From Escherichia coli (GTDB taxonomy: Bacteria; Pseudomonadota; Gammaproteobacteria; Enterobacterales; Enterobacteriaceae), in NCBI RefSeq assembly GCF_003334335.1, contig NZ_QOWQ01000167.1: 600 bases of DNA; one strand, given 5' to 3'. Below are positions 1-539 of the stretch, in pieces. Both the position numbers and the translations under genes were made by a program. The notes beneath the pieces are model-generated. The model had not been told where the DNA came from. It searched no databases and saw only the letters and a program-made list of their open reading frames with translations. Each line of letters opens with the position of its first letter. The first letter of the stretch is position 1.

Positions 1-191
1 AGACACTGGTCCAGCCACTTCAGGTAATCATCGTCGCCCTTCCACTGGTTATCCCAGCCCTCAGGCTTCACTTTAAAGTACGGCGGGTCCGTGACTATCA
101 GGTCAACAGAATTTTCGGGTAACGACCGGATAAATTCCAGGCAGTCGGCGTTGATTAACTCACAACTGGATATTTTTACAGTATTAAGCAT
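1..191 (-). CDS. DNA amino-methyltransferase (probable N6-adenine, beta-class), 5' portion only; the gene runs off the left edge of the window
   Basis: Hand translation of the reverse complement from the ATG at 191..189 gives MLNTVKISSCELINADCLEFIRSLPENSVDLIVTDPPYFKVKPEGWDNQWKGDDDYLKWLDQCL, uninterrupted to position 1. An in-frame TGA sits immediately upstream (197..195), so the ORF cannot start earlier. The motif 'SVDLIVTDPPY' (DPPY encoded at 89..78) is the catalytic motif IV of amino-methyltransferases; its position ~35 residues from the N-terminus is the beta-class arrangement (YhdJ/CcrM/M.PvuII-like). D rather than S before PPY favours N6-adenine over N4-cytosine. This ORF is absent from the supplied track, presumably because it has no stop codon inside the window. 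Confidence 0.85.
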   Translation of the reverse strand, partial: MLNTVKISSCELINADCLEFIRSLPENSVDLIVTDPPYFKVKPEGWDNQWKGDDDYLKWLDQC

Positions 192-202
192 GGATCATTA
201 AG

Positions 203-210
203 CCTGTCTC
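203..210 (-). promoter_or_regulatory. weak candidate Shine-Dalgarno region for the methyltransferase gene
   Basis: Minus-strand 'GAGACAGG'; the AGG (205..203) is 11 nt upstream of the ATG at 191, a long spacer with weak complementarity. No better SD is visible. Confidence 0.3.
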
Positions 211-223
211 TGATAGGCTCATT

Positions 224-242
224 CTGCTTTTGCGCAAAGCAG
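224..242. repeat. short palindrome (7-5-7), candidate operator or leader hairpin upstream of the methyltransferase gene
   Basis: 'CTGCTTT' (224..230) and 'AAAGCAG' (236..242) are exact reverse complements separated by 'TGCGC'. Lies 33..51 nt upstream of the methyltransferase start codon. Confidence 0.45.
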
Positions 243-283
243 TGGGCCTGAGGTTTGCTTGTGATCCGGACGCATGAGCAGAT

Positions 284-314
284 GGCTGGTGAGTGCCCCT
301 AACACCCACCAGCC
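284..314. repeat. GC-rich inverted repeat / stable hairpin, function unknown
   Basis: 'GGCTGGTGaGTG' (284..295) pairs with 'CACcCACCAGCC' (303..314): 12 positions with one mismatch (292/306), 7-nt loop 'CCCCTAA'. Not followed by a T-tract on either strand, so not a canonical terminator. Confidence 0.55.
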
Positions 315-327
315 GCCCATTTACCAC

Positions 328-355
328 AAATAAAAAAGCCTTCACTGCGGAAGGC
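328..355 (-). terminator. putative Rho-independent terminator of the 65-aa ORF
   Basis: Minus-strand transcript would read GCCUUC-CGCAGU-GAAGGC (6-bp stem 338..343 / 350..355, 6-nt loop) followed directly by UUUUUUAUUU (337..328). The stem is short (4 GC pairs of 6), hence moderate confidence. The ORF's stop codon is embedded in the stem. Confidence 0.5.
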
Positions 356-539
356 GTCTGTAACAACCGAACTGATAGTCTGCCAGACCCGCCATAACCA
401 GCTGGGTCAGTATTAACTGGCAGCGTTCGCGTGAAAGGTAAGTATTCTGCGCAATCTCCCCGACTGTCGCCGGTTCGGTGGCACTTAATTCATTAAACAC
501 CACTCTGGCGGTTTCTGTCATATCCTGCTGTTTTAGCAT
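342..539 (-). CDS. small (65 aa) hypothetical protein, putative winged-helix/HTH DNA-binding regulator
   Basis: Part of the supplied 77-aa minus-strand ORF (342..575). I place the start at the ATG at 539..537 (MLKQQDMTETARVVFNELSATEPATVGEIAQNTYLSRERCQLILTQLVMAGLADYQFGCYRRLPQ) because it has an SD-like 'AAGGG' (552..548) 8 nt upstream, whereas the track's start at 575 is a TTG with no usable SD spacing. The stretch 'TVGEIAQNTYLSRERCQLILTQLVMAGL' has the helix / turn / recognition-helix pattern seen in winged-helix regulators. The stop TGA (344..342) lies inside a terminator-like hairpin. Coding status is moderately supported; the functional call is by eye only. Confidence 0.6.
   Translation of the reverse strand: MLKQQDMTETARVVFNELSATEPATVGEIAQNTYLSRERCQLILTQLVMAGLADYQFGCYRRLPQ

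Follow-up and report, generated by a model that had tools for sequence, protein, structure and literature searches.

Late-operon context and conserved structured leader of a promoterless prophage adenine methyltransferase gene in Escherichia coli

Introduction

How can a prophage carry an enzyme able to methylate the whole genome of its host, and yet leave no mark on the methylome of the lysogen? The question is raised by a 600-nucleotide (nt) stretch of an Escherichia coli contig (NZ_QOWQ01000167.1), referred to here as the window, both genes of which lie on the minus strand: a small open reading frame (ORF) of 65 amino acids (aa) and, 3' of it, the first part of a methyltransferase gene. The window is matched in 2283 of 5426 complete E. 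coli genomes (~40%), with a best identity of 99.0%, and also in 24 phage records, which include Stx2 phages, phiP27 and phage 1720a-02.

On its sequence, the encoded enzyme falls within the beta-class, non-specific adenine methyltransferases of the M.EcoGII/M.EcoGI family, the link being made through the enzyme of phage 1720a-02. The window translation, MLNTVKISSCELINADCLEFIRSLPENSVDLIVTDPPYF... (MLNTVKISS...VTDPPYF...), includes the DPPY catalytic motif of amino-methyltransferases and is identical to the N-terminus of a 349-aa protein of the closest relative, E. coli EC931 (locus L001), in which DPPY is found at residue 35 and FMGSG at residue 310. The EC931 protein is 94.8% identical to the 1720a-02 enzyme, which was named by Murray et al. 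as very similar to M.EcoGII (349 aa) (PMC5778455). Like the characterised member of the family, the window enzyme would be expected to methylate adenine in any sequence context. The solved structures found are of generic beta-class methyltransferases only (RsrI, CcrM, MboIIA and others).

M.EcoGI and M.EcoGII are silent in their native lysogen, and their constitutive expression is deleterious (PMC5778455); homologues in lysogens of O111 STEC (E. coli that make Shiga toxin) are likewise inactive. Murray et al. suggested that the M.EcoGI and M.EcoGII genes are switched on by prophage induction (PMC5778455). No mechanism for the silence was offered either in that paper or in the one on O111 STEC.

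The silence is explained here at the sequence level by three features: the lack of a promoter, a series of two terminators, and a leader that folds. The window is most likely the start of a lambdoid (Stx-phage-like) late operon, in which the promoterless methyltransferase gene would be read from the late promoter pR' via Q antitermination and through a structured leader. The window is laid out as follows.

191..1, minus strand: 5' part of the methyltransferase gene, 63 codons (ATG at 191..189; the frame exits the window)
327..192, minus strand: spacer of 136 nt, conserved structured 5' leader (covariance model match 323..186)
355..328, minus strand: intrinsic terminator, called terminator 2 (hairpin 355..338 and T-run 337..328)
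344..342, minus strand: TGA stop codon of the 65-aa ORF, within the terminator hairpin 355..338
539..342, minus strand: small ORF of 65 aa, weak winged-helix match, PHROG 331

Absence of a promoter for the methyltransferase gene

The minus strand has no promoter between the terminator and the methyltransferase ATG (191). No sigma70 site there scores above chance, in agreement with the first-pass annotation of the window, which had found no convincing one. A consensus scan of the whole window on either strand returned no promoter-like sites (0.6 +/- 0.8 in shuffled sequences). In a second scan, which used position weights with hexamer frequencies after the Hawley-McClure compilation, the highest-scoring site in 390..161 reached 6.8, as compared with 7.07 +/- 1.97 in dinucleotide shuffles, 51% of which reached at least that score, and the highest-scoring site with its -10 element inside 192..360 reached 5.3. 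The lambda-like pR' of the closest relative, L001, scores 12.0 on the same scale. Among 90 sequence variants from 187 related prophage loci, the best site has a median score of 5.3 and a maximum of 8.2, the latter in a single locus, L169, in which a G-to-T change makes TGnTAAATT.

The hexamers singled out in the first-pass annotation, TTGCGC at 237..232 and TATCAG at 215..210 with a 16-nt spacer, are correctly placed on the minus strand (the plus strand reads GCGCAA at 232-237 and CTGATA at 210-215) and are as poor as was stated there. They match the consensus at 3/6 and 4/6 positions, the second lacks the final T, and the pair scores 2.6 bits, ranking 28th in the window. The suggestion of an alternative sigma factor was not borne out, as no sigma-54, sigma-32, sigma-28 or sigma-E consensus is present: the best matches for sigma-54, sigma-28 and sigma-E need 4-5 substitutions over 11-12 positions, and for sigma-32 none was found within 5. 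An activator-dependent promoter in the spacer appears unlikely from the comparative argument on the position of the leader given below. Taken alone, the missing promoter is ordinary, being expected for a cargo gene of a lambdoid late operon.

A candidate antisense RNA on the plus strand was considered and rejected. Its promoter, TTAACT (155)-16-TACAGT (177-182), sits in the 5' end of the methyltransferase gene and scores 8.9, which is within ~1 standard deviation of shuffled sequences; the hairpin that follows at 201-219 (+), with a T-rich tail, would give a ~40-nt RNA and is broken in the second main haplotype.

Late-operon context in related prophages

The hairpin at 338..355, previously proposed as a terminator, is a conserved predicted intrinsic terminator of the minus strand. 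Its arms, GCCTTC and GAAGGC, enclose the 6-nt loop CGCAGT (6 pairs, 4 of them G-C; folding energy -8.9 kcal/mol) and are followed by the tail TTTTTTATTT, that is T6AT3; on the plus strand, no T-run follows the stem. Of the 17 sequence versions present in 187 loci, 16 retain the hairpin. In one haplotype, the loop is changed together with the last two codons of the ORF, and the stem is lengthened to 7 pairs. Terminator 2 may serve as an insulator, shielding the cell against the enzyme. A ribosome terminating at the TGA codon 344..342 would cover the 5' arm of the hairpin, which may modulate termination or may just be tight packing.

The window ends before Q, and its context was read from relatives, namely the closest one (99% identical DNA) and 183 related loci, the latter being those in which the small-ORF end of the window is accompanied by 420 nt or more of upstream sequence. 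The late region has the same order on one strand in E. coli EC931, phiP27, phage 1720a-02 and Citrobacter phage phiNP: Q, the small ORF, the methyltransferase gene, tRNA-Ile/tRNA-Arg, stx or a DUF6645 gene, holin and lysozyme. The genes downstream of Q in the relatives are on the same strand, promoterless, and lead to the lysis genes. The upstream protein bears the label antitermination protein or Q in L001, L002, L003, L004, L005 and L207, and that of L001 (273 aa) matches phrog_127, 'anti-termination protein Q-like', with E=8e-111. Just 3' of Q in L001 is pR' (TTGATT-16-TGgTAAATT, the site scoring 12.0), which we take to resemble lambda pR' closely, the AACGAT element after the -10 included. 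A short leader follows, and then tR', composed of the hairpin CCCGCCGCCTGGCGGG and TTTTTT.

The 183 loci include ~25 unrelated upstream classes, which differ in their Q and pR' types. The late promoter sequence varies with the type of Q, half of these sequences scoring at least 9, and a strong tR'-like hairpin with a T-run is present in 171/183, 60-79 nt upstream of the window's end. Relative to the window, tR' would lie ~65-75 nt past position 600 and pR', which in relatives is ~550 nt upstream of the methyltransferase ATG, would also lie beyond it. On this sequence comparison, the methyltransferase gene is placed behind two intrinsic terminators in series, ~550 nt 3' of the predicted late promoter. 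The intervening ORF is not constant. In N15-like phages, its winged-helix homologue is located upstream of pR', with the leader directly after tR'; in Klebsiella-type relatives, the leader also directly follows tR' and the ORF between them is absent.

In Stx phages, pR' is constitutively active, its transcripts are terminated at tR', and Q antitermination lets the late genes be transcribed (PMC7547250). Insertion of cargo genes is tolerated downstream of pR' (PMC4104026). By analogy, the methyltransferase gene would be transcribed from pR' and hence have no promoter of its own. In the lysogen, pR' transcripts would end at tR', and leakage or weak-promoter transcription entering the 65-aa ORF would be stopped at 355..328, keeping a harmful enzyme silent. 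After induction, Q would render the polymerase terminator-resistant, so that it could cross both terminators and transcribe the leader, the methyltransferase gene, the tRNAs and the lysis genes. The first-pass annotation had suggested, among other routes, that expression may depend on terminator read-through; this was correct in kind, while the expected route is Q antitermination, the context of which lies beyond the window.

The 65-aa ORF matches phrog_331 with E=2.4e-37. Its best Pfam match is TrmB (E=0.0013), further winged-helix families being weaker, and in RefSeq it is labelled as TrmB family regulator or hypothetical protein. The methyltransferase is absent from the Stx1 prophage Sp15 (Sakai). 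In 933W and many Stx2a phages, only its last ~33 codons (residues 316-348) remain; this piece maps to the region of the tRNA genes of the relatives and looks like a deletion remnant of the cassette. An Rfam search also gave a match to STnc100 3' of the tRNAs, in a region with described convergent prophage small RNAs, and a match to sok adjoining hokD (the STnc100 and sok matches lie at L001:4577-4766, L001:9612-9787 and L209:5240-5451).

Evidence for a structured leader

The spacer between terminator 2 and the methyltransferase gene is well supported as a conserved structured mRNA leader of ~138 nt, which accompanies this methyltransferase family in different phage types and the helices of which covary down to 51-60% identity of the methyltransferase protein. 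Its minimum free energy is -62 kcal/mol, with z = -3.5 to -4.3 as compared with shuffled sequences in four haplotypes, and the HP1 hairpin folds at -25 kcal/mol. The predicted fold comprises the following elements.

320..274, minus strand: leader domain 1, with P1 (320..315:279..274) and HP1 (314..303:295..284, loop 302..296)
266..193, minus strand: leader domain 2, with P3, P4 and HP2
266..262:197..193 and 260..257:203..200, minus strand: P3
249..246:218..215, minus strand: P4
242..236:230..224, minus strand: HP2, loop GCGCA

In relatives whose methyltransferases share 51-87% protein identity with the window-type or N15-type enzyme, the ATG is preceded by a segment of 130-139 nt that contains the same blocks and different stem sequences, and an HP1 of differing sequence folds in each of them alignment-free. 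A covariance model (R1), built from 11 sequences with the structure taken from the window fold, finds 44 leaders at E<1e-5 in the fetched loci. In the alignment designated A4, 90.0% of the cells form a standard pair, as compared with 32-46% when partners are slid by 1-3 columns; 27 of the 38 pairs are changed on both sides (11-17 for slid partners), and the covariation score is 0.41 (at most 0.106 for slid partners). Compensatory changes occur at 11 of the 12 pairs of HP1, in which 94.9% of the cells are paired, and at 6 of the 7 pairs of HP2. P4 is 97.7% paired, with a change of AGGC:GCCU to AAGC:GCUU. P3 has both-side changes at all of its 9 pairs, with only 81.6% of the cells paired, and P1 varies on one side, via G-U pairs. 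As G-U cells outnumber A-C cells by 113 to 39, the pairing is on the sense-strand RNA. RNAalifold applied to A4 recovers P1, HP1, P4 and HP2.

The same inverted repeats might act as DNA, either as a pair of Chi sites, as recombination or module junctions, or as operators, for example for the winged-helix ORF. Two sites in HP1 bear on this.

313..306, minus strand: exact Chi, 5'-GCTGGTGG-3', in the 5' arm of HP1
285..292, plus strand: near-Chi GCTGGTGA, one mismatch, complement of the 3' arm of HP1

An exact Chi is thus accompanied by a near-Chi on the opposite strand, and mosaic junctions with other phages fall at 293-302: homology to PhiR5_1 ends at window position 302 and homology to phiSTEC1575-Stx2k at 293, beside Chi. 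HP2 is a near-perfect palindrome, and the winged-helix ORF is always nearby. However, the stem sequences are entirely different from group to group and still pair, and Chi is limited to the E. coli-type group, in the leaders of which the 5' arm of HP1 is invariant. The G-U pairs, which count only in sense-strand RNA, exceed the A-C cells as given above, and P1 varies solely through them. There are loci that have the winged-helix ORF and no leader, and others in which the leader is present and the ORF lies upstream of pR'. A DNA-level function is therefore judged quite improbable as the reason for the conserved pairing, and a leader acting as RNA is preferred.

In the commonest variant (v0, 38 loci), the 3' arm reads CACCCACCAGCC, the complement of which contains GCTGGTGG, an exact Chi. 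The v0 loci and Citrobacter phage phiNP have two back-to-back Chi sites of opposite orientation in one hairpin. A second Chi of the same orientation as that at 313..306 is present between tR' and the small ORF in 154/183 loci, ~35 nt past tR' (about 6624-6631 in L001). Both same-orientation sites read along late transcription, and that orientation is active for RecBCD entering from the downstream cos end.

The position of the leader bears directly on the promoter question. It begins at ~323-320, 5-8 nt past the T-run, and the earlier statement that the methyltransferase 'needs' a promoter within 192..327 is not supported. In the window-type, N15-like and Klebsiella-type groups, the onset is 5-16 nt past the terminator T-run, and the leader always begins a few bases past a terminator or terminator-like hairpin. 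As the leader abuts the T-run, there is no room for a promoter, and functional transcripts must therefore cross the terminator.

A weak, unrecognised or activator-dependent promoter in the spacer or the small ORF, driving the methyltransferase independently of pR', is accordingly rated as very improbable. The candidate for it is TGTGGTAAATG at 327..317 (minus strand), which is one substitution from the extended -10 TGnTAAATT. It shares the 10-mer TGTGGTAAAT with the -10 region of L001 pR' (TGTGGTAAATT), L169 has TAAATT at that position (the score of 8.2 mentioned above), and internal promoters downstream of tR' are known in Stx phages (PMC7547250). However, the window has TAAATG, without the near-invariant last T, and scores 2.1 with its -35. 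A transcript starting ~7 nt downstream would begin within HP1 and lack the 5' strand of P1, which is invariant and kept in all groups. The absence of any alternative-sigma consensus and the silence of the enzyme in lysogens also count against it. The 327..317 element may be a vestige of pR' or a one-step route to constitutive expression.

Transcription from pR' thus remains the preferred reading, and the leader that it would produce may be a candidate new cis-acting RNA, as it matches no Rfam family. Rfam 15 gave only chance-level matches in the window at E<=10 (P26, 16.6 bits versus a gathering score of 36), and the leader was unmatched at gathering thresholds in 11 loci. Searches with R1 did not find the leader in Mu com-mom, in Sakai Sp15, or in contexts without the methyltransferase, nor in a low-GC group in which the methyltransferase begins 30 nt past a terminator; in phiSTEC1575-Stx2k, only a remnant of domain 1 was found.

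A 33-aa ORF at 320..219 (minus strand; MGGWWVL...) was rejected as a gene, its 'ATG' being the 5' strand of helix P1. Its counterparts in relatives range from 6 to 53 aa, with frameshifts and, in 9 loci, a stop at codon 7; the changes are mostly non-synonymous, and other groups have GTG, not ATG. In some variants, this ORF extends into the start of the methyltransferase gene with an overlap of 8 nt; in phiNP, the overlap is 4 nt (ATGA).

Two loci, L078 and L044, have a 39-nt deletion (window ~243-281), by which the 3' strand of P1 and the 5' strands of P3 and P4 are lost together with what lies between them, and are probably decaying. One IMG/VR sequence, L111, contains identical full-length leaders at 12065-12203 and 13127-13265, on the same strand and 1062 nt apart, which could be a tandem duplication of leader and methyltransferase or an assembly artefact.

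Possible roles of the leader

With its two hairpin domains, the folded leader would probably add post-transcriptional control, at the level of translation, processing or stability. In the window, P3 pairs GAUCA (266..262) with UGAUC (197..193) and AAGC (260..257) with GCUU (203..200), so that positions -2 to -14 ahead of the AUG are buried. In the window, the predicted cost of opening -16..+6 is 14.3 kcal/mol, versus 8.1 +/- 2.0 for shuffled leaders (z = 3.1). Considered as a universal role of the leader, burial of the ribosome-binding region varies among relatives: the opening energy is high in the window, moderately high in some groups, and equal to that of shuffled leaders in five loci, L233, L237, L239, L275 and L278.

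An alternative pairing is also available. Two partners are open to the invariant AUGGGC, namely the proximal GCYCAU, in a pairing that closes HP1, and the distal GGCCCA, itself invariant. RNAalifold picks the long-range AUGGGC:GGCCCA pairing in alignment A1, made with MAFFT alone, where the HP1 arms do not align between groups. As both AUGGGC and GGCCCA are invariant, covariation cannot choose between the two pairings. Tentatively, and with more doubt than confidence, the leader may be regarded as an undescribed conserved cis-regulatory RNA that gates translation or processing of the methyltransferases or of a Com-like activator, as the last of three locks and as a switch between alternative folds. 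Such an RNA would be recognised by its two hairpin domains and the invariant AUGGGC, AGGCCCA and GAGCCUA, and would be found in lambdoid, N15-like and related enterobacterial phages. As the trigger, one might envisage a ligand, a protein of the phage, RNase III or the methyltransferase itself; domain 1 is a ~20-bp interrupted hairpin, a size that RNase III cuts.

In four relatives, L274, L240, L281 and L241, the leader ends at the AUG of a 36-41-aa Com-like zinc-ribbon ORF (Pfam PF10122, Zn_ribbon_Com, E=2.5e-6; phrog_13819; regions L274:1333-1443, L240:1331-1441 and L281:1333-1458), which is then followed by a hairpin covering the Shine-Dalgarno sequence and TTG start of the methyltransferase. 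No Com zinc-ribbon ORF was found in the ORF list of the window, the upstream ORF being of the winged-helix type.

Both outer strands of P3 (263-266 and 193-196) read GATC, the Dam site, one copy standing 2 nt before the ATG, and N15-like relatives have AGCT-containing palindromic strands at the outer P3. Dam methylation controls transcription of Mu mom.

Alternative routes of transcription

Several points weigh against the proposed account of the locus. The upstream region of the window itself is predicted from relatives, the best database match being 99.0%, not 100%, identical, and the dependence on Q is proposed from synteny together with lambda and Stx-phage biology. Terminator 2 is absent in the distant relatives phiNP and an Stx2c phage, which have a hairpin without a T-run where it would be. 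As both keep the leader without it, terminator 2 is not essential to the design. Moreover, a second terminator would serve no purpose if only Q-modified polymerase arrived there. That it is conserved implies that the small ORF is also transcribed in some other way, and the sole candidate promoter past tR', TTTATG-16-TACAGT, has a score of 7.1, which is chance level. As to the leader, A4 was fitted to the model and hence favours the structure, the alignment-free folds being unaffected, and P3 is not recovered by RNAalifold on A4. Excess burial of the start region, significant in the window and in some groups, is reduced in several groups and lacking in others.

Given the conservation of terminator 2, read-through that is not, or not only, dependent on Q has to be considered, either by ribosomes on the terminator hairpin or by N-type antiterminated transcripts from pR. 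In the ribosome route, the methyltransferase would depend on small-ORF translation, a coupling suggested by the TGA codon inside the hairpin, since a ribosome terminating there would occlude the 5' arm. The N route would run from pR through Q into the late region. However, pR' is still separated from the small ORF by tR' (6 G-C pairs, T6 run), the promoters past tR' are unconvincing at a best score of 7.1, and lysogens show no methylation. Nor could the ribosome route be general, as the leaders of N15-like and Klebsiella-type relatives follow tR' without an intervening ORF. Read-through of this kind is considered unlikely, and Q antitermination from pR' is retained as the probable route.

Relation to known phage systems

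The arrangement seen in the relatives, in which Q is followed by a constitutive-type promoter, a short leader and a strong terminator, is that of lambda pR'-qut-tR' and of the Stx phages 933W, Sp5 and H-19B (PMC7547250). As in other Q-controlled lambdoid late operons, same-strand cargo (tRNAs, stx), holin and lysozyme genes follow, and the cargo is promoterless and silent in lysogens. Unlike in the lambda and Stx late operons, a second terminator and a 65-aa winged-helix ORF lie here between tR' and the cargo, and the first cargo gene encodes a non-specific adenine methyltransferase with a conserved structured leader of its own.

A parallel to Mu com-mom lies in the late expression of a harmful anti-restriction DNA-modifying enzyme under layered control, which includes an RNA structure hiding the translation start. 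Only the relatives L274, L240, L281 and L241 have the com-mom layout, with the methyltransferase replacing Mom. The window, in contrast, has no com ORF, and its enzyme is a beta-class methyltransferase, not Mom. The R1 leader was not found in Mu, in which transcription is under Dam, OxyR and C, whereas antitermination is proposed here. Promiscuous adenine methyltransferases are known to replace mom in Mu-like prophages (PMC3299994). Of these, Hia5, Hin1523 and Nma1821 are likewise phage-borne promiscuous N6-adenine methyltransferases in a late-gene anti-restriction position (PMC3299994), but they are of the alpha class, with the opposite motif order (PMC5778455), occur in other phage types and are unrelated in sequence to the window enzyme.

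In the leader of the lambda N gene, a long hairpin sensitive to RNase III masks the ribosome-binding site of N. The window leader resembles it in its ~20-bp interrupted hairpin and in the pairing before the AUG, which would fit control by processing or unfolding. It differs in that sequence similarity is absent and in that masking of the start site is not predicted in all groups.

Like the prophage 'morons', which are promoter-gene-terminator cassettes inserted 3' of pR' (cited in PMC4104026), the methyltransferase is an accessory gene in an insertion-tolerant region 3' of pR'. A moron, however, has its own promoter and is expressed in the lysogen, whereas the methyltransferase gene is promoterless in the scans and shielded by terminators. 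The small ORF with terminator 2 could be moron-like; a promoter for this ORF was not found.

Conclusion

The M.EcoGII/M.EcoGI-type enzymes pose a published puzzle, being encoded in ~40% of complete E. coli genomes without marking the methylome of the lysogen. If the reading of the leader as a cis-regulatory RNA is true, a three-layer lock, consisting of tR', the second terminator and the leader, would be set on an enzyme that is able to methylate the whole host genome. Should the leader control translation or the fate of the mRNA, the locus would parallel com-mom and represent a new case of a phage keeping a dangerous anti-restriction enzyme off until lysis. It would then also be relevant to users of M.EcoGII as a tool for chromatin or RNA labelling.

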